The notes below the pieces were generated by a model. The model was given only the letters and a program-made list of their open reading frames with translations. It was not told the DNA's origin and made no database searches. Source: Atractiella rhizophila (taxonomy: Eukaryota). From it: a stretch of 47,762 nt of DNA. Position numbers and translations under genes: made by a program. Shown here one piece after another: positions 8,808 through 42,829 of this stretch (position 1 is its first letter; each line of letters starts with the position of its first letter). The stretch is from the NCBI GenBank assembly GCA_021432655.1, contig MU271539.1, positions 1-47,762 on the forward strand. Reading direction: 5' to 3'.

Positions 8808-10703
8808 ATGGAGTCCTCTCATTCTCTCCAATCCTTCTCCTCCTCGTCTTCATCTGGATCGAACAACACCAATTCCACCTATGCCACCTCACTTTCACTC
8901 TCGTCCTCTGGACCTGGTGGCTGTGACAGTCAACCTACGGTCATCAAGCTCCCCATCCCGCTCCCAAGTCCTCCACCCATCGAGAGGAGACATCCCGCCA
9001 GCTTGCTGCCGAAGAGGTTTCATCATCCTGGGTTATTGGAACTGGTCAGGAGCCCCGTCACTGGGGACATGATCAGTCAGTCGCCGCTTTCTTCCTCCCT
9101 CTTTGCTTTCATTGTTTTCGTTGACGATGGATCGCTGATTGTTTTTTTTGCACGTAACAGCATATCTCGCTCACAAAGCGATCTCAGTCATCCACTGCTC
9201 GTCTCCTCCAGCCCCGCTCCTCTCCCCTCCTCATACGCCAACGAAGCCCGGAGTCGTCTCCAATGGCAATCTATCGACGGGAGCGTCAGGAGACCAAGGA
9301 GCGATGCCTTCCCTGGAGACATTCATCAAGATCCTCGTAGACAAGTCGAACGTTCAAGTCCCGACCTTGCTCACCACGCTCGTCTATTTGGATAAGCTCA
9401 AGAATCGTCTCCCAAAGGTCGCGAAGGGTATGCAGTGTACGAGACATCGCGTCTTTTTAGCTTGTCTTATCGTCGCCGCCAAATATCTCAATGGTTAGTT
9501 CCTCCTTCCTTCCTTTTTCTTGTCCTTGGCTTTCCACTTTCCTTTCCTAGAAGGAGAGGGATGGATTTGGGAACTGAATAATTATTTCTGATATTTTCGG
9601 CGCTATTTACAGACTCCTCCCCGAAGAACAAGCATTGGGCGAAATACGCTGCCCTGTTTTCGATTGCCGAAGTGAATTTGATGGAGAAGCAACTGCTCTA
9701 TCTTCTCGACTACGACCTCCGAATGACGGAGGACGACCTTCTCCAACACTTCGAGCCCTTCCTACCGGCAGCCACCAGGGCTCAACCATCCCCCATCAAA
9801 TCCTCCTTCTCCACCCCTTCGTTCCAGAACCACAAACCCGCCCATCTGTCGATCACGGTTCCGCCTAGGAACCTCGAGCTTTCGGTTGATCTAAGGGCAG
9901 CGTCTCCTCAGTGGCCCATTACTCCCGTCAAGAAGACTGGTGGTGTTGAAGGAACTAAGGCCGGCTCTGGAAACTCGTTGTTGCCCACACCCTCGCCGAG
10001 TCCCACGAAGCCGATCACGCCCATCAAGAGCAGGTTCAACAAGCCCGTTCCTCCTCCTCCTCAACCTGAGACTCAAGCTCTGAATCAAACCCAGAACACG
10101 GTCCAGTCCCAGGCTCCAGTTCCCGTGCCCATCCAGAACCCCAAGACGCAGCCTCACCCCCTAGTCATGACGCCTGAATCGTCGAGCGACTCACAAGCTT
10201 CCTCGTGTTCTTCAGTGGGCAGTGTGGGTAGCGTTGGGTCGGGATATTCGATCACGTCTTCGGTTGGGAGCGTGGCGAGCGGTGCGGACTCAGAGTGCAT
10301 GGAGATGGATCTCGACCTGTCCCCACTTGCGAGCTACGGAGCGGGAGGAGAAGGGAGACGGAGGCCGCTGATGCAGAGGAGGAAGTCCTCCCCTCGTTCA
10401 ACCACCGCGAAGAAGTACGCTACCGTTGTACCCCGCAGGACGTCAGCCGCCAAGCTGAACGCCGTCCTTGGAGTCGGTACTGGCGCTGATGGGAGAGGAG
10501 CGGTGGGATTACAGGATGAGGTCGCCGCCTTTCAGCTCGCGTTGCCCTTTGAGAAGATGCAGACGACGGATTGTTTGGCGTCCAATCTGAAGACGAAGAG
10601 CTCAACGGGGAGCTTTTTGAGGATGACGTTTGAGGCGGGGAAGGGGATGTGGGAGAAGAGGAGGGAGAGGAATGGATCGATCAATGTAGATGCTTGTCAG
10701 TGA
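8808..10703 (+). CDS. Pho85-type cyclin (Pcl1/Pcl2 family), 3 exons, long disordered C-terminus
   Basis: Cyclin box [32 protein letters not shown]...[26 protein letters not shown], continuing [17 protein letters not shown]. Introns near 9076-9160 and 9495-9612. Confidence 0.92.
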
Positions 10704-11649
10704 TCTGGATGACGAAACAACCACTCCGTCTCTTCGCCTGCTCTTTCACTGTCGGCTCTTTCCATCATCGTCGGTCCGTTACGATGACTCTTCCTCTTTC
10801 GATCTCGTCTCCTCCGATCATCCCTCTCTCATTAATTCGGATTGTCGTAGTAATCAATCCTCCCTCTCCACTAATCGTCGCTAGGGGTGTCGATTTCGAA
10901 TGAAGAAGCATCATCGTTATCAATTGATTTGGTCTTTGAGTATTCAATTTTTCCATTGTTGTTTTGTCGGCTGTCTCTTGGTTATTCTTTTATCGTTTTC
11001 ATTTCATTTCAGTCAACCATCTGTCCCTCAGTTCACCCGCAGTTTACGAAGACGACGAACCCTCTTGTTCTTCCACAAGTCTCACAGTCTACGACATCCG
11101 CGCCACCTTTACGATCCGAGAACCAACGGGATTCCTTCCTCCTTCCTCTTCCCTCTCTTCTCATCATCTTCACATTATTGTTATAATCGAATGGACCATC
11201 AAAAGAAAGGAAAGAAGAGCTTTTAGATCTTTCTCGTATCGATTTCTGCGTTCTACTTACATGTTTCTTTAGCTGGATTCACGTTGGCTTGAACCCATTT
11301 TCTGGCAAACGAGACTGGATCCCATTCGATTTCCACTGGTTGGCATCGATTCTTCTTTCTCTTCATCACCCATCTTCAACCTCTTGTCAATGTACACTTC
11401 TTTTCCTCCTTCACCCTTTCCTCACTTTCCGCTACCCTTGTTCAATTTCATTGACGGACTTATTGGAGATGTCTTGCGCATGAGTGGATTGATGTCATGT
11501 AGCTTTCCTCAATGTTTGCAATAGAGAATGAAGAATCCCTCCCCTGTGGAACCTCATCATAGTGAGCCTCAATTCACTTTCACAAATATGCAATTCCAAT
11601 ATAAACCACGCAAATACGAACGAAAATGGACAGTGACACCAGGTTGGAC

Positions 11650-12865
11650 TTATGCTCCTCCAGCTTTTTCGCTTTCCATGGCGGCCCATACTTCTTTGAG
11701 CTCTTCCAGTGTCGTGTCGGCCAGCTCTGGAAATGTTCCCTTTATGTTTTCCAATACCTTCAGGAGCTCTTCCTCCGACACATCATCCAGCGACAACATA
11801 TCTTCGCTCTCCGGGAGATCACGATCCTCTTCGTCGGTGGCAGGATTGATTACAGGTTCTTCCGTTTCCTCATCATCAAACAGATCATCAACCTCAAAAA
11901 GCGTCTTCTGATTCCTCAAGGTTTCCCAATGATCCTCTTCTCGTGCAGGCTCTAGAAGACTCCCCCATGCCTTCTCACTCTTCAATTTTTTCGCGACGTT
12001 CAAGGTCCCCATGGACTCTTGGAACTGCTTCTCCTGCGCTTCTCTGGCAGCGTGTAGCTCGTCGGATGCAAAGGGTAGTTGGAAGGGATCGGGATTTTCC
12101 AAGACTAGCGAGGAGTCGTGTTTCCCTGTGGAATGTGGAGAGGAATGAGTGTGACGGTGACCGCGATGTGGCTTTGCCTTCTGCTCTGTCTTGGGACGAA
12201 CATTCAAGTCTGCGTCTGAATTCCTGAAATCGCTTGCGAATGGACGCCTTCGATTCACATCAGCTCGCTTGCAGACTCCCAGTGTCCCTTCTGTGGTACA
12301 TTCGAACTCGGGAGTGAAGCAGGAATATTCCCAATGAATCTGTGCGACCAATCGTTAGTGTCTTTCAATATCTCAGAGAGTGACATGAACTGACATCGGT
12401 GTGCTCGAAAGGCGCTTGGGTGTTGCAAATGCTGCCATTCCCACCGCAAATACCTGTGAACAATGCCTTACAAAGGTTTTCTTGTGAGGGCCGTGTAAAC
12501 CTCACCATCTGAACACCATCCAAAACAGTTTTCGTCTGATTCACACTTTGCTCCATTGTCCGCACAGTGATCTTTGTGTCGCCATTGGAGCACCGTCAAC
12601 CAATCTGCAGTGAATGAAGGAGGTGAACACTAACAGTTTGGAGCACACCACCCTTCCACTTTCGTCTTCTCCACTCCGCTCTCAACTTGGTATAGGTACG
12701 AGCACTGCTCCCCTGGTTCACAACGCGGACCTTAAGCATACGCATCAGCATCCTGGTACCACGATAGAGTCTCCGACAGCTGTACGAACCTGGTTTCCAG
12801 TGGAAACCTCTCGCACATTGACAAAGGAAAAGGATGGAAGATGCAAAAGGAAGGTAAGAGTACAT
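11650..12865 (-). CDS. Predicted secreted Cys-rich protein with acidic C-terminal region, ~5 exons, function unknown
   Basis: Signal-like MYSYLPFASSILFLCQCARG. Spliced exons read GPRCEPGEQCSYLY...GWCAPN|YHCADNGAKCESDENCFGWCSD|GICGGNGSICNTQAPF...|IHWEYSCFTPEFEC, then an Asp/Glu-rich tail ending at 11650. Confidence 0.7.
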
Positions 12866-13461
12866 TACTGGACAAGTTCAGCTGCAAGTTGGAGTGCTGG
12901 AGGTTGGAGCAGAGTGCTACCTTATAACAGTGCGCGTTCTAGATCTTCAAGTTAGAACCCGGAAGGAGGCGAGTTCCCGATGCTTCACGCCTTCTGCGGC
13001 GTTTCGGCGGCAACTTTGGGAAGGGAGGGTCCTTGTGAAAGTGCACGGCGCGTCAATCAAACATCATCAAAAACAAACCAGAAACACGGTGGAGCAAAGT
13101 AAGGAGGTAATAAAGAAGTGAAATCCTGCGGGCAATTCATTGATGGTGCCACATCAGTCACAATCATCGGCTTTTCACCAACACTCCGGGACACCTACGG
13201 TACCCCAGAAAGAACCTTTTCGTTCCGATCTAGAAGAGTAAACAAACGGTTGACTTCAACCGCTGCATTGAATGGTGTCATTCAACCACGTATACAGGAT
13301 CGAGACCACTGCAACGAGGCTGGAAGCACCGCCGTGGGCCACGGCTCCTTTACGAAGCAAGGAAGTCAATAAATCTGTCCTGTCAGAGCTGTCAGCCATG
13401 AATGGGCGAGGTATCGTGATTGTTGACTGTAGAACCCCAGAATGACCATGTCACATAAATT

Positions 13462-14082
13462 CTAGTACATTTGCATTGGGCCAGTAGATTGGACATTTGT
13501 AAGCGGAACAGAGGGAGGCATTGAAGGTTGTTGGGGTACAGGTTGTGGAAGGACGGAAAGGAAAGGAGGGATAGGTTGTTGTTGAAAGGGCATCGGTTGA
13601 GTGAGGGGTTGGTGAGGAAGCGACGCGTAAGGCGGAAGAGATACAGGAGGGATGATCGGTTGTTGGATTGGGGGATAGAGAGGTGGAAGTGAATGTCGAA
13701 ACATCATCGATGGTGGCGGTTGCGAAATGGTTTGAGACATCGGAGGAGCCAACGGCGGGATCGTGGCAGGTTGATGAGTGTAGATTGTCGGAGCAGTTGG
13801 TTGTGGAAGTACAGGTGGAGGGACGACAATGGGAGCAACAGGTTGAAGGAGAGATTGTGCGAGGACCGGTTGAGAAGTAGCAGAGGGAGCATATTGTTGT
13901 GCGTCGGATTGAGGGATCGTAGATGGATCAGATTGTTGGAGGTCAGTGTCAGTTGTGATGGTCGAAGGAGCGTGTTCAGGGACAGGTTCAGGAGCGATGG
14001 TGGAAAATTCAGGTTGAGAGACGACAGGTTGAGTTGAAGTATCAGTGGATTCGAGGGTTGAAGGAGATTGAGGCCTTGATTG
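13462..14082 (-). other. 206-codon Pro/Gln/Ser/Thr-rich open frame directly after, and in frame with, the AHA1 stop codon (candidate C-terminal extension)
   Basis: Hand translation from 14082: QSRPQSPSTLESTDTSTQPVVSQPEFSTIAPEP...GPMQMY*, with no stop until TAG at 13464-13462 and no ATG in the first ~114 codons. Confidence 0.6.
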
Positions 14083-15724
14083 TCAGAGGAGGGTTCCGAG
14101 CCTTTAAAGAAACAACGAACAGAATATTAGTACTGCTCTCCATCGAAAATAAATCACCGTTTGAGTGGCCCCGATGGACCGTATAAAAAGGCAGCGATAA
14201 GCCCAACAATCAAGCTGACAGAAATCAAGAAGGGCACTGCGCCAGCAGCGACGAGCCCTAGCTTCCCAAATTTTGGTGGTGGGAGGGTTGTTTGCTGTTG
14301 CGTAGGGGGAAAGGGTTGGACAGCCATAACTGACCCTATTTGCTTCAGCGACTTGATGTAGAAAGCGTCTAGATTTCTTTCTGCTTCGTCCTCCTTCCCA
14401 ACTGGCACTTTCGACAATCGAAGAGTTAAAGTGGTAGAGTCGCTGCCCTGAGACAGAATAGTTGTAAGCTCTCCAAAGTGACCTTCCGGCCATGTCGGCG
14501 CTATAAGCAAGTTAGCAGGTTCCCGAAATGGAAAGTAATGGCGTACCTCGCCATGTTGAGACCATCTTTTTTGGTGCGTCGACAGATATAACCTTCCCAA
14601 CAATGTTGTTACCAAACATGCTGATTTCGGCACCTGGTTCAGGCTTGATCTGCGTTCTCTTCAGCTTTCAAGCTCTATTCACAGAAAGTCCAACCCACTT
14701 TCGCAGGATTCCTCGTCCACATCGGTACCTTGGTTTCGTCCGTCAAGAAGGACCAGAGATCTTCAGCGGTGACCATGAAAGCGCCGTCTACTTTTACAGT
14801 TGACGTGTTAAGAGCAGCAGATTCCGTTTTAGTCGACGGCTTCACACCAGCAGAGCCTGATGGGGCTGGTGATGCCGAAGGCCCAGGGGAGGGTGCAGTG
14901 CCAGCAGGTGTCTGAGCGCCAGACGGGGGCTGAGAGATGGAGTTGGGGTCAACAATCATTTGGTTTCCGTGCGTCTCCATTAGAACCTTCCAGAACACTC
15001 ATTTGTCAGCTTCAGAATGTTTTGCAGATGAAGGACGAACGAACCTTGGGGTACTCATGGAACTTTGCCCGCAAAGCCTTTGAAAGGGTCTTTTTGACAT
15101 TATTCTCAAAGAGATCCTTTGCTTCTTTCTTGGACGAGTTGCAAGTGTATTCGAACGTGTAGTCAGATTCGTCCAAGTCGTGCATAACCTCCAGCGCCGT
15201 TATGTCTCCCGACGCCTTTTCACCGTCCGAAAGGTCGGCTACAGGAGATACAATCAGCGCTGCTTTACAGAAACCGAGGAGAAAGATCACACCTTCCCAT
15301 CTCATCGTGATTTTGAAGTCGTAAATCTATTCAAGACCTAACTTCAGTGCCAGTAGGCGACATGCGAATAAACCCCACCGTGACGACCCTAGTTACCTCA
15401 AATTACTATTCAACGCTTAAGACGCGAGAATAAATGAGACACGCACTTCGCCTTCCTCATTCCCAGTTCGCAAAGTCCCTCGATTTCTCCAACACTTGGA
15501 CAAATCCCTCTTAACCCAGATAACTGACACAACGAACAGACACACCTGTCAATCCTCACTGGACCTTCGGACAGGAGAAGCTCATTTTTAAACCATTCTT
15601 GGCTCCATTTGGTACAATCTGTTGGACGAATCCACGATCTCGTCAGCAGCTGCTACAGTAATGAGAAAAGGTCCTGACCCTTGTTACGCCAGTGCCAATT
15701 CACGATAGTAGAAGACTGAGCCAT
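14083..15724 (-). CDS. AHA1: Hsp90 co-chaperone Aha1, copy 1 (complete, including last exon)
   Basis: MAQSSTIVNWHWRNKDCTKWSQEWFK, GEIEGLCELGMRKAKVVTIYDFKI, and a C-terminal START-like domain (TAEDLWSFLTDE...APTWPEGHF...FYIKSLKQIG). Last intron 14334-14102; last exon 14101-14083 encodes LGTLL*. Confidence 0.93.
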
Positions 15725-15886
15725 TTTGATGATTTTTCCTTGCTCTTCTGCAGAAAAGTCGAGAACACTGCTGGTGGTATGCTGGCGGCTGGAAGATGTT
15801 TGCGCAGCACTTTAGGCACCTGGCTTGCTCCAACCACGAAGCAACTTTCTACCTTTCACTTCCTCTCTTTACTTTTCCCAAAAAAA

Positions 15887-15949
15887 ATGGCTGACGGACC
15901 AGAAATCACACGCCTGAATAGCTAGTGAGCTCTTTTCTCTGCGTTCTAC
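15887..15949 (+). pseudogene. CDC10: Truncated CDC10 fragment (exon 1 plus part of intron 1) cut by the duplication junction
   Basis: ATG GCT GAC GGA CCA... as in the copies at 17712 and 19662, ending at the junction. Confidence 0.85.
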
Positions 15950-15977
15950 ATTAGTACTGCTCTCCATCGAAAATAAA

Positions 15978-17548
15978 TCACCGTTTGAGTGGCCCCGATG
16001 GACCGTATAAAAAGGCAGCGATAAGCCCAACAATCAAGCTGACAGAAATCAAGAAGGGCACTGCGCCAGCAGCGACGAGCCCTAGCTTCCCAAATTTTGG
16101 TGGTGGGAGGGTTGTTTGCTGTTGCGTAGGGGGAAAGGGTTGGACAGCCATAACTGACCCTATTTGCTTCAGCGACTTGATGTAGAAAGCGTCTAGATTT
16201 CTTTCTGCTTCGTCCTCCTTCCCGACTGGCACTTTCGACAATCGAAGAGTTAAAGTGGTAGAGTCGCTGCCCTGAGACAGAATAGTTGTAAGCTCTCCAA
16301 AGTGACCTTCCGGCCATGTCGGCGCTATAAGCAAGTTAGCAGGTTCCCGAAATGGAAAGTAATGGCGTACCTCGCCATGTTGAGACCATCTTTTTTGGTG
16401 CGTCGACAGATATAACCTTCCCAACGATGTTGTTACCAAACATGCTGATTTCGGCACCTGGTTCAGGCTTGATCTGCGCTCTCTTCAGCTTTCAAGCTCT
16501 ATTCACAGAAAGTCCAACCCACTTTCGCAGGATTCCTTGTCCACATCGGTACCTTGGTTTCGTCCGTCAAGAAGGACCAGAGATCTTCAGCGGTGACCAT
16601 GAAAGCGCCGTCTACTTTTACAGTTGACGTGTTAAGAGCAGCAGATTCCGTTTTAGTCGACGGCTTCACACCAGCAGAGCCTGATGGGGCTGGTGATGCC
16701 GAAGGCCCAGGGGAGGGTGCAGTGCCAGCAGGTGTCTGAGCGCCGGACGGGGGCTGAGAGATGGAGTTGGGGTCAACAATCATTTGGTTTCCGTGCGTCT
16801 CCATTAGAACCTTCCAGAACACTCATTTGTCAGCTTCAGAATGTTTTGCAGATGAAGGACGAACGAACCTTGGGGTACTCATGGAACTTTGCCCGCAAAG
16901 CCTTTGAAAGGGTCTTTTTGACATTATTCTCAAAGAGATCCTTTGCTTCTTTCTTGGACGAGTTGCAAGTGTATTCGAACGTGTAGTCAGATTCGTCCAA
17001 GTCGTGCATAACCTCCAGCGCCGTTATGTCTCCCGACGCCTTTTCACCGTCCGAAAGGTCGGCTACAGGAGATACAATCAGCGCTGCTTTACAGAAACCG
17101 AGGAGAAAGATCACACCTTCCCATCTCATCGTGATTTTGAAGTCGTAAATCTATTCAAGACCTAACTTCAGTGCCAGTAGGCGACATGCGAATAAACCCC
17201 ACCGTGACGACCCTAGTTACCTCAAATTACTATTCAACGCTTAAGACGCGAGAATAAATGAGACACGCACTTCGCCTTCCTCATTCCCAGTTCGCAAAGT
17301 CCCTCGATTTCTCCAACACTTGGACAAATCCCTCTTAACCCAGATAACTGACACAACGAACAGACACACCTTTCAATCCTCACTGGACCTTCGGACAGGA
17401 GAAGCTCATTTTTAAACCATTCTTGGCTCCATTTTGTACAATCTGTTGGACGAATCCACGATCTCGTCAGCAGCTGCTACAGTAATGAGAAAAGGTCCTG
17501 ACCCTTGTTACGCCAGTGCCAATTCACGATAGTAGAAGACTGAGCCAT
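15978..17548 (-). CDS. AHA1: Aha1, copy 2; lacks the final acceptor and exon, so only the intron-read-through membrane-tail C-terminus is encoded
   Basis: Near-identical to copy 1. The junction at 15950 falls right after the last intron's branch site (gtactaat), removing aag|G-LGTLL*. Confidence 0.8.
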
Positions 17549-17711
17549 TTTGACGATTTTTCCTTGCTCTTCTGCAAAAAAGTCGAGAACACTGCTGGTG
17601 GTATGCTGGCGGCTGGAAGATGTTTGCGCAGCACTTTAGGCACCTGGCTCGCTCCAACCACGAAGCAACTTTCTACCTTTCACTTCCTCTCTTTACTTTT
17701 CCAAAAAAAAA

Positions 17712-19011
17712 ATGGCTGACGGACCAGAAATCACACGCCTGAATAGCTAGTGAGCTCTTTTCTCCACGCTCTACAAAAAAATTGGGTCTGAGAGGTTACC
17801 TTCGCTAGTGTTGGTTTCGACTCTATCACAAAGCAAATCGAACACAAGCTCCTCAAGCGAGGATTTCAGTTCAACGGTCTGCGATTTCCTACCTCCTGAG
17901 ATGAGTGCTCACAAAATTTCCTGGGAAAAGTCATTGTGGTCGGCCAAACTGGTCTTGGAAAGTCCACGTTGATTAACACCATTTTCGCGTCCCATTTGAT
18001 CGACTCGAAGGGAAGGTTTGAGGCGGACGAGCCTATCCGCCAGACTACTGAGATTCAAGCCGTCTCCCATGGTACGTTTCTCGCGTTTTAAACGAGCCGT
18101 GGGAGGAGGTTGAGGTTCGGTGTTCTGGAACAGTTGTCCAAGAAAACAATGTTACACTCCGACTCAATATCGTTGATACTCCTGGGTACGGAGACTTAGT
18201 CAATAACGAGAACTGGTGTGTTTCCTCTATCATCCAGAGAGACTCTGTTTAAAGGAAGAACAAACAGTTGGGACCCCATAATCAAGTACATCAAGGACCA
18301 GCATTCCGCCTATCTTCGCAAGGAGCTTACTGCCATGCGAGACCGATATATTCAAGACACGCGGATCCATTGCGCGCTCTATTTTATCGCTCCTACCGGC
18401 CACAGCTTGAGGACGATCGATATCATTGTCATGAAGAAGCTTTCGGAGGTGGTGAACGTCGTCCCTGTCATTGCCAAGAGCGACAGTCTCACGCTCGAGG
18501 AAAGACAGAAGTTCAAGGAAACTGTACGCCTTTCTTACACTAACCCGCGTCGTAATCGAACCATGTGAGAGCAGATCCGCGCTGAGCTTGCCCACCACAA
18601 TATTCGGGTCTTCCCCTTCGACAACGACGAAAATGATCCTGAGGAGACGCAACTCAACGAAGCGATCAGGAACATGATCCCCTTTGCGGTCGTTGGTTCA
18701 GAGAGGAATGTGATCATTGATGGAAAACCGGTGAGAGGAAGGAAGAATAGGTGGGGAGTCATCAATGTCGAAAATGAGCAACACTGCGACTTCAACTACC
18801 TCAGGAATTTCTTGATGAGGTTCGCGCTTTCATGTTTATGGGCTATTCGATTGAACACTGATCTGGTCGTCGTGACTGCAGGACTCACCTACAAGACCTG
18901 ATCGAGACTACTGCTCAGATCCACTACGAAGCTTTCAGGTCGAAACAACTACTTGCACTTAAGGAATCGAGTGCGAACAAGGCTGCTCAACAACAACCCA
19001 ACGGTGTTTAG
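17712..19011 (+). CDS. CDC10: Septin Cdc10/Spn2 group, first full copy (3' UTR cut 10 nt after the stop)
   Basis: YVGFDSITKQIEHKLLKRGFQFNVIVVGQTGLGKST (G1), DTPGYG (G3), AKSD (G4), GRKNRWG, and a short C-terminus with no coiled coil. Confidence 0.93.
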
Positions 19012-19021
19012 AGGATGTCTT

Positions 19022-19500
19022 AGATACAATCAGCGCTGCTTTACAGAAACCGAGGAGAAAGATCACACCTTCCCATCTCATCGTGATTTTGAAGTCGTAA
19101 ATCTATTCAAGACCTAACTTCAGTGCCAGTAGGCGACATGCGAATAAACCCCACCGTGACGACCCTAGTTACCTCAAATTACTATTCAACGCTTAAGACG
19201 CGAGAATAAATGAGACACGCACTTCGCCTTCCTCATTCCCAGTTCGCAAAGTCCCTCGATTTCTCCAACACTTGGAGGAATTCCTCTTAACCCAGATAAC
19301 TGACATAACGAACAGACACACCTTTCAATCCTCACTGGACCTTCGGACAGGAGAAGCTCATTTTTAAACCATTCTTGGCTCCATTTTGTACAATCTGTTG
19401 GACGAATCCACGATCTCGTCAGCAGCTGCTACAGTAATGAGAAAAGGTCCTGACCCTTGTTACGCCAGTGCCAATTCACGATAGTAGAAGACTGAGCCAT
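19022..19500 (-). pseudogene. AHA1: 5' fragment of AHA1 (first four exons) truncated at the duplication B junction
   Basis: ATG at 19500; matches 17070-17548 and ends at 19022. Confidence 0.85.
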
Positions 19501-19661
19501 TTTGATGATTTTTCCTTGCTCTTCTGCAGAAAAGTCGAGAACACTGCTGGTGGTATGCTGGCGGCTGGAATATGTTTGCGCAGCACTTTAGGCACCTGGC
19601 TTGCTCCAACCACGAAGCAACTTTCTACCTTTCACTTCCTCTCTTTACTTTTCCCAAAAAA

Positions 19662-20963
19662 ATGGCTGACGGACCAGAAATCACACGCCTGAATAGCTAG
19701 TGAGCTCTTTTCTCTGCGTTCTACCAAAAAAATTGGGTCTGAGAGGTTACCTTCGCTAGTGTTGGTTTCGACTCTATCACAAAACAAATCGAACACAAGC
19801 TCCTCAAGCGAGGATTTCAGTTCAACGGTCTGCAATTTCCTACCTCCTGAGATGAGTGCTCACAAAATTTCCTGGAAAAAGTCATTGTGGTCGGCCAAAC
19901 TGGTCTCGGAAAGTCCACGTTGATTAACACCATTTTCGCGTCCCATTTGATCGACTCGAAGGGAAGGTTTGAGGCAGACGAGCCTATCCGCCAGACTACT
20001 GAGATTCAAGCTGTCTCTCATGGTGCGTTTCTCGCATTTTAAACAAGCCGTGGGGGGAGGTTGAGGTTCGGTGTTCTGGAACAGTTGTCCAAGAAAACAA
20101 TGTTACACTCCGACTCAATATCGTTGACACTCCTGGGTACGGAGACTTAGTCAATAACGAGAACTGGTGTGTTCCCTCTATCATTTAGCGAGACGCTGTT
20201 TTAAAGGAAGAACAAACAGTTGGGACCCCATAATCAAGTACATCAAGGACCAGCATTCCGCCTATCTTCGCAAGGAGCTTACTGCCATGCGAGACCGATA
20301 TATTCAAGACACGCGGATCCATTGCGCGCTCTATTTTATCGCTCCTACCGGCCACAGCTTGAGGACGATCGATATCATTGTCATGAAGAAGCTTTCGGAG
20401 GTGGTGAACGTCGTCCCTGTCATTGCCAAGAGCGACAGTCTCACGCTCGAGGAAAGGCAGAAGTTCAAGGAAACTGTACGCCTTTCTTACACTAACCCGC
20501 GTCGTAATCGAACCATGTGAGAGCAGATCCGCGCTGAGCTTGCCCACCACAATATTCGGGTCTTCCCCTTCGACAACGACGAAAATGATCCTGAGGAGAC
20601 GCAACTCAACGAAGCGATCAGGAACATGATCCCCTTTGCGGTCGTTGGTTCAGAGAGGAATGTGATCATTGATGGAAAACCGGTGAGAGGAAGGAAGAAT
20701 AGGTGGGGAGTCATCAATGTCGAAAATGAGCAACACTGCGACTTCAACTACCTCAGGAATTTCTTGATGAGGTTCGCGCTTTCATGTTTATGGGCTATTC
20801 GATTGAACACTGATCTGGTCGTCGTGACTGCAGGACTCACCTACAAGACCTGATCGAGACTACTGCTCAGATCCACTACGAAGCTTTCAGGTCGAAACAA
20901 CTACTTGCACTTAAGGAATCGAGTGCGAACAAGGCCGCTCAACAACAACCCAACGGTGTTTAG
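19662..20963 (+). CDS. CDC10: Septin Cdc10/Spn2 group, second full copy with native 3' UTR
   Basis: Same exon structure as 17712-19011. The coding differences I found are synonymous. Confidence 0.93.
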
Positions 20964-21535
20964 AGGATGTCTTTTCCACTTACCTTTCTCGACCAACCAA
21001 ATGTTTATCCATTCGTCCTCTCAAAACGTCAGCTTCGTTCGTTTAATCCAGGCTTTTCGTACGGTCCATTTCCAGTTCCGCTGTCTACTCATCTTGTTAC
21101 GTTACATCTTTTGTCAGAGGTGGTCAAAGAGTTTGGCGAAGGTCCAAATTCTGCCTTTTTTGGTTGGGGAGGTCGAATGGGGTTCGCTGTTCGCTCAAAG
21201 TTGAGTACGTTGAGTGGTAGGAGACGCAGAGTGGTTATACCCTTACTCTTTGGTTAATGCATTCGATTTATTCTTCAACCTTCAATGTGGCAAAGCAGAA
21301 TGGAATGCTACTCGTGCCTTCCTCCTTCCATGAAGCTTGAAGCTTGAAACATGTGGATTTCGAGTTCGAGGACAAAGAGTGAGGAAAAGCTTGAGGAAAG
21401 GAAAGTATTGAAGCATCGCATTGATGCTATTCACATCAGTTTCCGCCACTTTTCGTTTTTAGGTCACAGGTATGTAATTAACATGTTTGTGCAAACATGT
21501 ATTTCACAAGTTGTGAAAGAGTGACAAAAAATTAT

Positions 21536-21712
21536 AGCGCAAGTCCCCCGAAAGAGACTTCGCGCCTAAGCAAATATTCAGACCCGTGCCAACGCGATGC
21601 GCCGTCACTAATATGGGACTCCCGTGGGTCGTTTGGGTCACCGTGCAATGCGCGAGTCCCATACCAGACACCCAGGTTTCTTGAGCCCCAGAAGCCAGGT
21701 CAAGGTAAGTAT
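21536..21712 (-). ncRNA. U1: U1 spliceosomal snRNA, copy 1
   Basis: 5' ATACTTACCT (splice-site recognition), loop I GCTCAAGAAA, stem TATGGGACTC/GAGTCCCATA enclosing the U1A site ATTGCAC, helix H GACC/GGTC, Sm-like AATATTTG, terminal hairpin AAGTCTCT-TTCG-GGGGACTT, and TATAAAA ~30 nt upstream. Confidence 0.93.
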
Positions 21713-21738
21713 GAAGACTTCAAGTTGACCTTCCTCCC

Positions 21739-21745
21739 TTTTATA
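21739..21745 (-). promoter_or_regulatory. TATA box of U1 copy 1
   Basis: TATAAAA 27-33 nt upstream of the ATACTTACCT start; conserved in copy 2. Confidence 0.75.
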
Positions 21746-22294
21746 CCTTTCGCAACCGCACAAGGTTGTCGGAATTTTGTTCCAAAGCCACTCCTAAAAA
21801 AGGAAATTCGTGGCTGCCAATTCATTTATCACCGATGTTCCTCCACCTCGCATTTCTCAACCCGTCCGCATCCATCCCAAACCCGTGATATCCGACGCTT
21901 TTAGCTCAGTTCTGGTTCTGAAAAGCCAAGTTTCAATGGTATGAAAGCTAGCATACATATTACTCCACATGCACAACGAGGCACCTTCATGTGAGCGCCC
22001 CTGCAGCCAGGCTCCCCACATGCCAGCCTCGATTTTGTGGGAAAGTGATTGCAAGGCTTTGCCTGGACATGTCATTGAACCACTGCTCTCACCCGCATTG
22101 TGCCTCTCGCTCTTTATGATGTGTCACATTTTTATGAGATCCATGGAAAGCACTCCGCGAACTCCAGTATTGGCTATAGCGCTGTGACGAAGTGGGCAGA
22201 AAGATGGAAACCGCTTTCCACCTTTCATCCCATTGATCAACCACAGTAACCTCCAATGCGACGTTTGTGACGTGTCACAAGGTGCGCTGCTGGT

Positions 22295-33708: not shown

Positions 33709-36679
33709 CTTAGAGAAGGAAGGCAAGGCTGGCGACGGCAAAGAATGCAACTGTCGCCGTGCTTGTTTGGAGTAAGCTCGCAGACGAATTGTCACTCTCC
33801 CTGTTCCCCGACTAGAGTGGTTGTCAGATCTGTAATGCAGACATTAATATTAAAAGATGGTAGACGTACCGCATTGGTGGCTGCTCCTGAAAGCGTGGCG
33901 TTTGTGGACACGGTGATGTCGTTTGTGCAGTTCTTGCTCCAATCCGAAATGGTGATGTTGTCGATCCGGAGGGTGAAGACACTATCCGTGCTAGGTTTAA
34001 TTCCTTCGCCCATTTATGGAGGTAGAACGTACCTCTGAGGAGAAATAGAAAAGATATCGTTTCCTGCCGCTGTCCCTATGAAAGTGAAAGGAACAAATGG
34101 ACCTTGACACGAATTGTTATGAGGTCTTAGGGGTAAGCAATTACATACCTGCATCGGCCGTCCCAGTTGGGACAGACACAGTCTCGTTGAGACTTCCAAA
34201 CTTGACGAGGGTATCGATCGGGTCATCAGCCAACGCGAAAGCGTAGAAGCTGACGGTGCTGCATACCAGTCGTATCAGAGACATGCAACGGTACCGTGAG
34301 CGACCGAGAACACATACTAGTTCACTCCAGCCTCTGCCGCTGTGCCCTGAGAGAGAGTGGTGAAATTAAACAGGGTGCCGTAACTTCCATCACCATCCGG
34401 CGCAATCGATCTTCCTGAATCCACGCCGCATAGGGAGGAATTGCTTCCAGGAGCGCGTGCGCAAGTCCATGGATCGACGCTCGTCGTGGAAAGCGTGAAG
34501 CCTCCATCGGATAGGAGGTTGGGGAAGCAGGTGCACACTGCTGCAGCGTTCGAGATCTCGAGATTAGTGAAGCCCAGAGTCGCCGCGCCGAGAGGCGTGA
34601 TTCCGAATGTGTCGTTGCCTGCGGCGACGCTGTAGAACGTTATATTCTGGAAAGGAACTGGAAATGGTTCTCAGCATCGACTAGCTACCGACACGAAAAG
34701 GGGGATGGTTACCTGTACCCGAGGCGTTCACGTTGAGAATGGAAATGGTTTGATGGAAAGAGCCGAATTGGACCAAGGCATCAACACTGTCCACATCCGT
34801 CACGAATGCCTGGAAGGAAACGGTGTAATTCGTTCCCGCTACTGCAGCAGTTTCGTAGTTCAGGGTCGAGAAGTTCGCCAGCGTTGCATACTTTGTATCA
34901 ATACCCGTCACATTCGTCCCATCCACGAGTGCTGCAATACCCAAGTCAATACTTCTAACTTTCCAAATCAGCATTCGACGTACCACAAGCACCAGCGGTG
35001 GAGCACTCGAACGGTGCAAACGAAGTATTTGATGCCTCAAAGCCTCCATTAACGACCAGATTTGGAGCACAAACCGTTCGATTGCTGGGAGGTGTCGGGG
35101 TGGCAGTCGGGAGAGCAACGACGATAGTTGTTGTAGAACTAACCAGGATACTTGTTGGAGTACCAGCAGAGGTTGCCACGGAAGTGCTGACGATCACACT
35201 TGGGACAAGTCCAACCGAAGTCGTCACTTCTACAACAGTCGTTACTTCTCCTCCGCCTCCTGCGGGAGTCGAGACGCTTGTGGTCTCGATAACCGTGGGA
35301 ACTGTGATAGTCGGAGGATCTGCGCAGAGCTATTCAGACACCAACTTAAAAACAAGTAGTTATCGTACTCGGAGTGGTGGCGGTTGGAGAGCCTGTTGGA
35401 GAATCTGTGACGACTGGTCAATCAATTGACTAATGGGACAAAATAAGGGCCAACCTGTAGGTGGCGGTACATCAGTTCCTGTATTTGTAGGAGAGGTAGT
35501 GGGAGTATTCGTACCAGTGGGAGTGTTAGTGGGCGTAGTCGTAGGGGTATCGGTCGGAGGAGTATTAGTACCTGTAGGGGTAGTTGTGGGAGTATTCGTG
35601 CCAGTGCCGGTTGGAGTAGTCGTGGGAGTATCAGTAGGAGTTGTGGTGGGAGAATCTGTGGGAGGAGGCGAGGTATCGGTAGGGATGGTGGTGGTGCCTG
35701 TAGGAGTCGTTGTGGGAGAGTCTGTGGGAGGAGGTCCAGTATCAGTAGGGGTTGTGGTGGGAGTATCTGTAGGAGTTGTAGTGGGAGAGTCTGTGGGAGG
35801 GGGACCAGTATCGGTAGGAGTTGTAGTTGGAGTATCTGTGGGAGTCGTGGTGGGAGAGTCTGTGGGAGGGGGGCCAGTATCGGTAGGGGTTGTGGTGGGA
35901 GAGTCTGTGGGAGGCGGCCCAGTATCAGTAGGGGTTGTAGTGGGAGAGTCCGAAGGAGGTGGCCCATCAGTTGGAGGGGTTGTAGTCGGCGAATCAGAAG
36001 GAGGGGGACCATCAGTTGGTGGAGTTGTGGTAGGAGAATCGGATGGAGGAGGCCCATCATCTTGACGCTTTCTGTGAAGCCTAGCAGGTACAATTGAAAT
36101 CGAAGAGACGACAATAGATCGACTCGATAGTGGGGTCAATGTCAGCTTCTCCTCTCCGGATGCACGAGCAAACACTGTGTAGTCATCGAAGCCTATCACA
36201 ACTCAATTGAACATCCGGATAAATAGCCAGAGAGGTAATGACGCGAACCATTAAAATTTGGGTAGACGTCCACAGTCATGTGGAAGTCTCCAAATTGTAT
36301 GAGGGTTGCGATCATGTCGTCATCAACTGCCGCCGCGGAGAAAGTTATAGCACTTCATTCCTTATCAGAACATGAAGATTATTATCTGAAAGATAAACGC
36401 ACTATTCCTCTCCCTCCTTTACAGGAACGGTCCGGGATAGTGTGCCATAGGAAGAGACTTTGATGTGCTCTCCTCTCGTCCGAGCGAACCAAGGAAGCAC
36501 TCCTTGAGCTAACCATTAATTCCTCATGAGTATCGCTCCATCGATCGCAAACAACACTCACAGCACAAAGAAGGATTTGAACACTCCCAAGACCCCTTCC
36601 CAAACCTCTCCACTCCAAACAATAACTCTTGGGCATCCACTATGCCAAGCGCCACAGCTGCAAAGATCGCCCTCTTCAT
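33709..36679 (-). CDS. Secreted/cell-surface mucin-like protein: signal peptide, N-terminal domain, Thr/Pro repeat stalk, Cys-containing beta-sandwich-like modules; 3' end approximate
   Basis: MKRAIFAAVALGIVDAQ signal; Kex2-like KR before QDDGPPP; PTDSPTTT repeats; CAPNLVVNGGFE and CFPNLLSDGGF starts resemble galactose-binding-like/CBM4-9 modules (inference). Confidence 0.75.
35480..36058 (-). repeat. Coding minisatellite (~39-nt GPPPTDSPTTTPTDT-type units interspersed with 24-nt PTTTPTDT units)
   Basis: Visible in ORF 35360-36199. Third codon positions vary between units. Confidence 0.95.
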
Positions 36680-41541: not shown

Positions 41542-42265
41542 CGTGGGTGGATTTCTGATACGTGTGTTTGAAGTTCCTGTGATTCAGTATTGGGATGGAA
41601 GCTAGAAGGGACTTCCTTTTTAAATGCCTCCTTCGCGTCTGGAATGAGCGCTACAAATGACTACTCCTTGCGCATAGCAGAGAACGCGGTCTCCGCTCTT
41701 GCCGAGATGTGGAGTGGAAAGATGTCAGCCACGGACTCAGCACACCGAATAGCAAGGTCGAGCGAAATGGATGCTCCTTTCCAAACAGACATCTGACTGT
41801 GGCCGAACTGTTCATTAGAATGCTGACCAACAGTTGATGTTGAGATGCAGGCGGGCATAGACGGCACCTTTTATTCCGACATAATTTTCCGCAAAGAACC
41901 ATGAGTCCAGTTCTGCAAGAAGCGATGAAAATATTTAGTGTGAAAAAAGGGTCCTGCCATCATCGGTGCATCATGTTTTCTCACTCAGCGCGTCAAAAGA
42001 AAAGAAAAATCTTGTCCATGGCTAGTGTGCTTGGGGAACAAATGTGTACGGTGGTACGGGGATGTTGTATGCTGGTTTCCACGCGCCGTCAAAACTTGAG
42101 AGCTTGAGACCAATCAAATAACTCCATATTGAAGGCAGGCGTTAAAAATGCGACATGGGGAAACATCGGTGATAAACGAATCGGAAAGCCGCTGAAGCCA
42201 CTAGTTTCCTTTTTGAGGAGTGGCTTTGCATCTAAATTCCGACAACCTTGTGTGGTTGCGAAAGG

Positions 42266-42273
42266 TATAAAAA
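42266..42273 (+). promoter_or_regulatory. TATA box of U1 copy 2
   Basis: TATAAAAA 27-34 nt upstream of ATACTTACCT. Confidence 0.75.
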
Positions 42274-42299
42274 GGGAGGAAGGTCAAATTGAAATATTC

Positions 42300-42476
42300 A
42301 TACTTACCTTGACCTGGCTTCTGGGGCTCAAGAAACCTGGGTGTCTGGTATGGGACTCGCGCATTGCACGGTGACCCAAACGACCCACGGGAGTCCCATA
42401 TTAGTGACGGCGCATCGCGTTGGCACGGGTCTGAATATTTGCTTAGGCGCGAAGTCTCTTTCGGGGGACTTGCGCT
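42300..42476 (+). ncRNA. U1: U1 spliceosomal snRNA, copy 2
   Basis: Identical by eye to the reverse complement of 21536-21712, with the same motifs. Confidence 0.93.
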
Positions 42477-42829
42477 ATAATTTTTTCTCACTCTTTCACA
42501 GCTTGTGAAATACATGTTTGCACACGTATATTGATTACATACCTGTTTCTTAGAAAAGAAAAGTGACGGAAACTGATGTGAACACCTTTGAACCCCGAGA
42601 AAGAGGTGTAAAGTGTATCTCGACTAGTAGTTATGTCGTCTTTGATCCTTACCTAGCGCTTCTCTCTATGTACGTGAGGAGGAATACAGCTCTACGTGGG
42701 CAGGAATACTAGCACTTAAGTTTTATGCCGCAGGAGGGTGAGAAACCTTTAACTTTTCTCCTAAATCCCCAGCTTGTCACCTGTTTCGCATTGCAACTAT
42801 CTATCTACTGTGGCAGAGTGAGCTGCTGT

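Follow-up and report, generated by a model that had tools for sequence, protein, structure and literature searches.

A Putative 206-Codon Extension behind the AHA1 Stop Codon of Atractiella rhizophila, a Candidate for Readthrough in an AG-Free Terminal Exon

Introduction

Aha1 is a helper (co-chaperone) of Hsp90. In Atractiella rhizophila, a fungus dwelling in roots, its gene, AHA1, lies on the minus strand of a 47,762-bp contig, the whole of which is called the window here, and the frame of the last AHA1 exon stays open for 206 codons (618 nt, the tail) beyond the stop codon. Since Aha1 paces the Hsp90 cycle, its place and partners of action would be altered in an isoform, if one exists, that carries a long disordered tail; an effect of the tail on localisation or condensates, raised in the preliminary description of this locus, is purely conjectural.

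Translation beyond the AHA1 stop codon has a precedent in yeast. Ribosome profiling in Saccharomyces cerevisiae and S. paradoxus yielded 19 strong candidates for conserved readthrough extensions, AHA1 being one of them (Artieri and Fraser 2014, PMC3941106, section 8; YDR214W is marked 'GOOD' in supplement file 5). The yeast gene belongs to the same family and shows in-frame translation beyond its stop by profiling, whereas its extension, as far as those parts of the source tell, appears short, its supplement row reading '9 9', and is seemingly unrelated in sequence to the Atractiella tail, which has 206 codons and is known from sequence and RNA contigs (PMC3941106). The preliminary description took a tailed Aha1 to be undescribed; given the yeast candidate, Aha1 readthrough is not new in principle, and it is the long extension, and this tail, that are new in the literature searched.

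Ustilago maydis, also a basidiomycete, forms C-terminal isoforms by bypassing stop codons, as is proposed here for Atractiella AHA1. Its glycolytic enzymes reportedly carry cryptic peroxisomal signals that are reached via readthrough or alternative splicing. These short extensions finish in a type 1 peroxisomal targeting signal (PTS1), whereas the Atractiella tail has 206 amino acids (aa), ends in ...GPMQMY, and carries no PTS1. Readthrough of U. maydis PGK is mentioned in PMC4132726, which also gives two leaky-stop motifs, CARYYA (tobacco mosaic virus) and CARNBA (yeast). There, CARYYA is credited with about 15% readthrough in a mammalian reporter, UGA and UAG being equally effective (PMC4132726). 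As in Atractiella, the hexamer stands directly 3' of the stop; the efficiencies come from viral and reporter settings in plants, yeast, and mammalian cells (PMC4132726), and those in an atractiellomycete may differ.

A third parallel concerns splicing. Human AG dinucleotide exclusion zones lie upstream of 3' splice sites whose branch points are distant (Gooding et al. 2006, PMC1431707) and, as sketched in that source, are long, pyrimidine-rich, AG-free stretches ending at an AG, as is a stretch that spans nearly the whole Atractiella tail. Unlike those zones, the Atractiella one belongs to a terminal exon that the mature mRNA retains, and a coding-like frame overlaps it. We found this signature described for introns only; an AG-free coding-like exon is unreported in the literature searched.

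We put forward, tentatively, that the 618 nt behind the AHA1 stop are a lineage-specific putative coding extension carried on the spliced mRNA, and that the stop would be bypassed mainly by readthrough. That the tail is translated at all, by either readthrough or splicing, appears on balance probable from its sequence properties.

Results and Discussion

AHA1 and the Frame beyond Its Stop Codon

The structure of AHA1 (Table 1) was taken from contigs of four public RNA runs, aligned to positions 11400-15940 and yielding GT..AG joints; such contigs lose rare variants, so a missing joint is a weak negative. Exons joined by script translate into a 327-aa Aha1 ending in KQIGLGTLL, followed by TGA, 206 aa, and TAG. 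The last intron (joint 14100->14334, cut +1) is much longer than the others and contains a branch-like TACTAAT at 14126-14132. Membership of the Aha1 family is clear from domain content: P0002, which like P0001 carries Atractiella rhizophila as organism name, matches PF09229 (Aha1_N) at residues 14-141 (1.8e-31) and PF08327 (AHSA1, START-like) at 207-320 (1.6e-18), and the spliced end IGLGTLL-stop agrees with IGLG(T/S)(I/M)L-stop in four short homologues. The RNA-supported last exon is missing from both annotated models, and the 10-nt micro-exon is left out of P0001.

Table 1. Features of the AHA1 Locus in the Window
Feature	Position	Strand	Basis or remark
AHA1, ATG to TGA	14083..15724	-	10 exons; RNA-contig joints, spliced translation, Pfam domains
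AHA1 introns (approximate)	15619-15678, 15495-15545, 15389-15446, 15327-15378, 15239-15292	-	RNA-contig joints
AHA1 introns, continued (approximate)	14987-15044, 14650-14698, 14501-14546, 14102-14334	-	RNA-contig joints
10-nt micro-exon, GGTCGTCACG	15379-15388	-	between introns 15389-15446 and 15327-15378; 8 letters between joint sides, 3 runs
Last AHA1 intron, 233 nt (other introns 46-60 nt)	14102..14334	-	joint in 4/4 runs
Terminal mini-exon, coding part, (G)LGTLL + TGA	14083..14101	-	sequence and spliced translation; LG(T/A)(I/M)L-stop mini-exon also in relatives
Hexamer CAATCA directly 3' of the stop	14077..14082	-	fits CARYYA and CARNBA
Second AG (AAG/G boundary), in frame	14075..14076	-	27 nt beyond the used acceptor; AG count
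AG-free zone, ~613 nt, 66-67% pyrimidine	13464..14075	-	AG count; longest in the window, next 156 nt
Tail, in-frame open reading frame rich in P, Q, S, and T, 206 codons (618 nt)	13465..14082	-	open reading frame list (13462..14082) and spliced translation
Tail stop TAG	13464..13462	-	its AG marks the end of the AG-free zone; AATTTATGT comes next
RNA-contig ends of 3 runs (13437, 13443, 13450)	13437..13450	-	12-25 nt beyond the tail TAG

The tail is on the same RNA as the spliced AHA1 exons. One contig of run X6 (record 16) is unbroken over 13443-14100 and continues over the 14334 joint; in run X1 (record 2), 13718-14100 is linked to four upstream exon pieces, and in run X23 (record 9), 13913-14100 is linked to upstream exons. 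Polyadenylation soon after the AHA1 stop, which the preliminary description had named as speaking against a tailed isoform, is thus not what these contigs show, since those with spliced exons run through the tail. The shared region in which contigs of three runs end is a weak hint at the main AHA1 3' end, although one X23 contig extends further, to 13332. The TAG AAT TTATGT that follows the tail presumably resembles the yeast-type terminator motif. A loose end at 13942 in an X23 contig has no match in the window and no AG before it. Run X23 covers all 30 bins, so that DNA or pre-mRNA is possible in it; contig depths, which in X23 rise in the distal tail and which cover intron bins in that run alone, were excluded from the evidence.

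The coordinates, codons, and splice sites of the preliminary description all agree with the sequence, the open reading frames (ORFs), and the RNA joints, and so does its open, P/Q/S/T-biased frame with no early ATG: the earliest in-frame ATG is codon 115 (13738-13740), and further ones are codons 126 and 127. The AHA1 stop occupies 14085-14083 in the minus-strand reading GGG CTC GGA ACC CTC CTC TGA CAA TCA AGG CCT. Both further claims made from these letters hold: the CAATCA behind the TGA matches both leaky-stop motifs as defined in PMC4132726, and splicing to the AAG/G at 14076-14075 would join in frame. The hexamer is scarce: its frequency over the window is 0.002 per position, and among the tail's 205 in-frame codon pairs it turns up in 2.

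The encoded tail would be unusual in composition, its 206 residues including 52 P, 28 Q, 24 S, and 19 T, a single G, two R, and no K, W, or C. With no Lys and two Arg it would be invisible to standard tryptic proteomics. Two PY-type motifs, PPLY (13675-13686) and LPPY (13627-13638), compare with about 0.4 expected by a rough estimate, which is not significant.

Coding-Type Statistics and Strain Differences

Base use in the tail is uneven by codon position (chi2 66.7, p 2e-12; last intron, p 0.53), G making up 16.5, 1.5, and 12.6% of codon positions 1, 2, and 3. The periodicity keeps one phase through all four quarters of the tail, and its strongest signal comes from codons 1-114, ahead of every in-frame ATG (p 2e-10). 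A repeat array was dismissed as its cause because Tandem Repeats Finder (TRF) reports no array in the tail, just a two-copy 11-nt unit.

Differences between strains follow the same frame. Thirteen were listed in the tail, a set that is complete for runs X1 and X6, with at least four further in X3; over the whole 11400-15940 stretch, 27 rows of differences lie beyond those listed. Third codon positions hold 9 of the 13 (binomial P 0.009), and synonymous changes make up 7 of the 13, where 26-29% would be expected (P 0.03-0.055), compared with 2 of 13 in each of the other two frames. Within codons 1-114, four of the eight listed single-nucleotide polymorphisms (SNPs) are synonymous; as a control, the AHA1 coding sequence (CDS) has 8 of 9 listed differences synonymous. 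No indel is among the listed tail differences, whereas the intergenic stretch 12801-13192 has five indel events and four substitutions (Fisher 0.005), a weak comparison, resting on one low-depth X23 contig. Taken together, the variation in the tail fits a translated, loosely constrained disordered region.

A Proposed Route past the Stop Codon

In the readthrough model, most ribosomes would end at the TGA and yield the canonical 327-aa Aha1, and a minority would decode the TGA in its CAATCA context and add 206 more codons up to the TAG near the apparent mRNA end. The product would gain a disordered tail that is rich in Pro and Gln and free of Lys. The same codons could alternatively be reached if splicing used the in-frame AG that lies 27 nt downstream, readthrough being taken as the main route. 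The purge of AG from the terminal exon would leave the weak, regulated last intron no cryptic acceptors to pick within this pyrimidine-rich exon. Judged by the features above, low-level production of a longer Aha1 is probable.

The tailed isoform of the preliminary description therefore stands in part: periodicity, synonymous bias, and leaky context favour it, and the junction at 14075 that it also envisaged is absent from the contigs of the four runs. No difference that would signal adenosine-to-inosine editing is listed at 14083-14085 in the RNA contigs, and to our knowledge selenocysteine machinery is not known from this subphylum.

AG Exclusion across the Terminal Exon

On the minus strand, AG occurs twice in 13440-14101 against 16.5 expected, once at 14076-14075 and once in the tail TAG. 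These two sites border the AG-free zone, and the unusual composition stops exactly at the TAG. The ratio of observed to expected AG is 0 in the zone and 0.67-1.5 in other pyrimidine-rich 600-nt segments, and no other 600-nt stretch falls below 0.60. Over the 300 nt beyond 21 other long-ORF ends the ratio is about 0.6-1.6, with in-frame runs of at most 79 codons; one of the 21 had a longer run, which probably enters a following exon. These comparisons rule out that 3' regions of this genome share such an AG-free long frame in general. Mutation resembling repeat-induced point mutation is ruled out as well, because CG is not depleted in 13440-14101 (29 vs 28.8 expected) and TA is depleted rather than enriched (16 vs 39.7).

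We infer that the exclusion reflects selection against 3' splice sites. An AG-free exon of this kind would, if real, be a case of a splicing constraint overriding codon choice across 600 nt.

Elsewhere in the window, a 150-nt AG-free, pyrimidine-rich stretch on the plus strand (10699-10848) begins at the stop of ORF 9582-10703, a much smaller echo of the AHA1 zone.

Aha1 C-Termini in Relatives

A search with P0002 returned 31 Aha1 proteins, 20 of which were aligned (alignment A1), the duplicate P0001 and ten shorter or fragmentary proteins being left out. The short C-terminus IGLG(T/S)(I/M)L-stop, like that of the spliced Atractiella form, is found in 4 of the 20; another 15 run on for some 60-110 residues into a conserved hydrophobic segment followed by YGP(S/T)G, and the remaining one (Phakopsora) has a different C-terminus. 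In Atractiella, the retained last intron reads in frame to such a tail-anchor peptide, ending at a TGA at 14156-14154 (ORF 14154..14660, minus strand). This anchor, a hydrophobic helix plus YGP(S/T)G, is conserved in Pucciniomycotina and one Tremellomycete, Kwoniella.

A profile scan of metagenome contigs for Aha1 gave 28 loci, seven of which include the KQIG region. The mini-exon is present in six of the nine loci examined (L001-L009), or five distinct ones, L003 being close to L004. The short form is represented by L001, a cDNA-like contig, and L002 and L005 are cDNA-like contigs that retain the last intron alone; the last intron, where retained, would encode the tail anchor at L002, L005, L003, L007, and L008. 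Soluble and membrane-anchored Aha1 thus look like a conserved isoform pair, judged from sequence; no description of tail-anchored Aha1 or of Aha1 intron retention in fungi was found in the literature searched.

At the five distinct loci the mini-exon stops are TGA, TAG, TAG, TAA, and TAG, behind which the frame stays open for 27, 4, 33, 20, and 42 codons. Neither a CARYYA context nor a long frame follows any of the five stops, and observed-to-expected AG there is 0.7-1.4. Compared with these loci, Atractiella alone combines the long frame with the leaky hexamer and an AG-free zone. The preliminary description had held early stops in relatives to count against a tailed isoform. Such stops do exist, and because the five loci are just 42-49% identical we take them as a sign of lineage restriction and not as a refutation.

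A wider scheme, which we consider quite unlikely as a whole, would have three C-termini made from one 3' region: splicing and termination at the TGA would give the soluble form, intron retention the tail-anchored form, and stop bypass a form with a Pro/Gln tail of about 200 aa carrying PPLY and LPPY. The AG-free zone, inscribed in coding sequence, would fix the acceptor choice of the weak last intron, and the tailed form might connect a WW-domain ubiquitin ligase, or condensates, with Hsp90 cycling. With readthrough, acceptor choice, and intron retention possibly acting on one stop codon, the AHA1 locus would make a compact test bed.

Competing Explanations

Several observations weigh against a tail that is translated by readthrough. 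The selection signal in the tail is modest when its listed synonymous differences are set beside those of the AHA1 CDS. Codon use is atypical for genes of the window: all 28 Gln codons are CAA (44% in the window reference genes), all 24 Ser codons are TCN, the Glu codons, by eye, are all GAA, and CTG and GTG are unused, which points to constraints at the RNA level. The AG exclusion has no known connection to readthrough. No stimulatory RNA structure was found 3' of the stop, where folding is weaker than in 200 of 200 shuffles (z +2.34; whole exon, z +1.33). The five relatives, from other Pucciniomycotina classes, all stop 4-42 codons past the AHA1 stop. Finally, phmmer found no homologue of the tail among 1.84e9 representative proteins, its one match, P0003, being a bacterial-type repeat protein that was dismissed as spurious. 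Pfam and the ESM Atlas gave no match to the tail either, Rfam none, and none of the 154 stretches that matched its pattern in metagenome contigs was confirmed. With TRF showing no array, these same searches lend no support to the idea, named beforehand as a refutation, that the frame belongs to an unrelated gene or a transposable element.

Much of this would be expected if the tail were a long untranslated 3' region (3'UTR) with roles as RNA, such as protein binding, the blocking of splicing or early polyadenylation, or escape from nonsense-mediated decay, the frame and its periodicity being either left over from sequence that once was coding or a side effect. We regard this as somewhat unlikely. 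It would account for the missing homologues, the shortage of TA, the codon use, and the weak folding near the stop, and for AG avoidance that also acts between neighbouring codons: not one of the 34 codons starting with G stands behind an A-ending codon, though 27% of codons end in A, and shuffling codon order gives a mean of 10.2 AG and a minimum of 3, with 0 of 10000 shuffles at one or fewer. RNA-level constraints would not, however, produce a single G phase across 618 nt, and they leave unexplained the excess of third-position SNPs among the listed differences and the presence, behind a rare leaky hexamer, of a frame in register with the AHA1 stop.

If the tail is translated, the main route could instead be an alternative 3' splice site. 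The exon-9 donor (14334/14335) would be joined to the AG at 14076-14075, skipping LGTLL-TGA and giving ...KQIG-PQSPST.... That AG, the likeliest in the exon to be picked in error, is the sole one kept in the purged exon besides the AG of the final TAG, and the Arg codon that holds it could have been CGN, as in the tail's other Arg. Counted from TACTAAT, the used acceptor is the first AG (25 nt), the AAG/G the second (52 nt), and the tail stop the next; the used acceptor is itself a weak AAG, and relatives retain that intron. Yet no joint to 14075 is listed in the contigs of the four runs, which lose rare variants, an in-frame position would arise by chance one time in three, and the CAATCA context is left unexplained. 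We consider this route unlikely as the principal one, and readthrough remains our tentative preference.

Another reading, an improbable one, takes the AG-free zone for the exclusion zone belonging to a long alternative intron whose branch point would be distant (e.g., CTGAC at 14083-14087) and whose acceptor would be the TAG (13464-13463), some transcripts then losing the tail by splicing. The zone's 613 nt without AG, 66-67% pyrimidine content, and end at a YAG do recall the human zones as presented in PMC1431707, and the X23 contig noted above reaches past 13440. The zone, however, does not end at a used 3' splice site: it stays unspliced in the contigs of all four runs, no joint into 13462 is listed, and contigs of three runs end 12-25 nt past that AG. 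Codon periodicity would also be unexplained.

Hardly better is the case for a separate small protein started at Met115 or a non-AUG codon, perhaps from its own shorter transcript. The in-frame ATGs at codons 115, 126, and 127 would permit it; against it, the periodicity peaks in codons 1-114, half of the listed SNPs there are synonymous, and the RNA contigs show no separate 5' end in the tail. A chance open frame in G-poor sequence (11% G) is very improbable: all three minus-strand frames do hold long ORFs (206, 158, 140, and 103 aa), but frame 0 is stop-free in just 37 of 5000 dinucleotide shuffles (0.7%) and 11 of 5000 mononucleotide shuffles, and periodicity, AG statistics, and stop context are all contrary.

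Surroundings of the Locus

AHA1 lies in a nested tandem duplication (14126-20973) with the minus-strand order X-U-X-U-A-U-A, in which U stands for the 5' exons of AHA1, A for its body, and X for the neighbour upstream, copies being 98-99% alike. Because the duplication boundary at 14126 falls inside the last intron, the mini-exon and the tail are single-copy. Residue 39 is Glu in P0001 and P0002, as in copies U2 and U3, and Asp (15548) in the copy that adjoins the tail. RNA contigs of runs X1, X3, and X6 leave the window sequence at 15924 and continue into X-like sequence, so the A/U junction may be strain-specific or an assembly artefact.

Downstream of AHA1, a gene at 11543-12704 (minus strand) has RNA-supported introns at 12572-12634, 12452-12503, 12340-12394, and 11543-11620 and a 234-aa acidic exon with no Pfam match. 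Farther away, an inverted repeat pair (21430-21815 and 42196-42582) is 94% alike over a spacing of about 20 kb, and a Pro/Ser-rich ORF contains a degenerate internal repeat array at 35582-36059.

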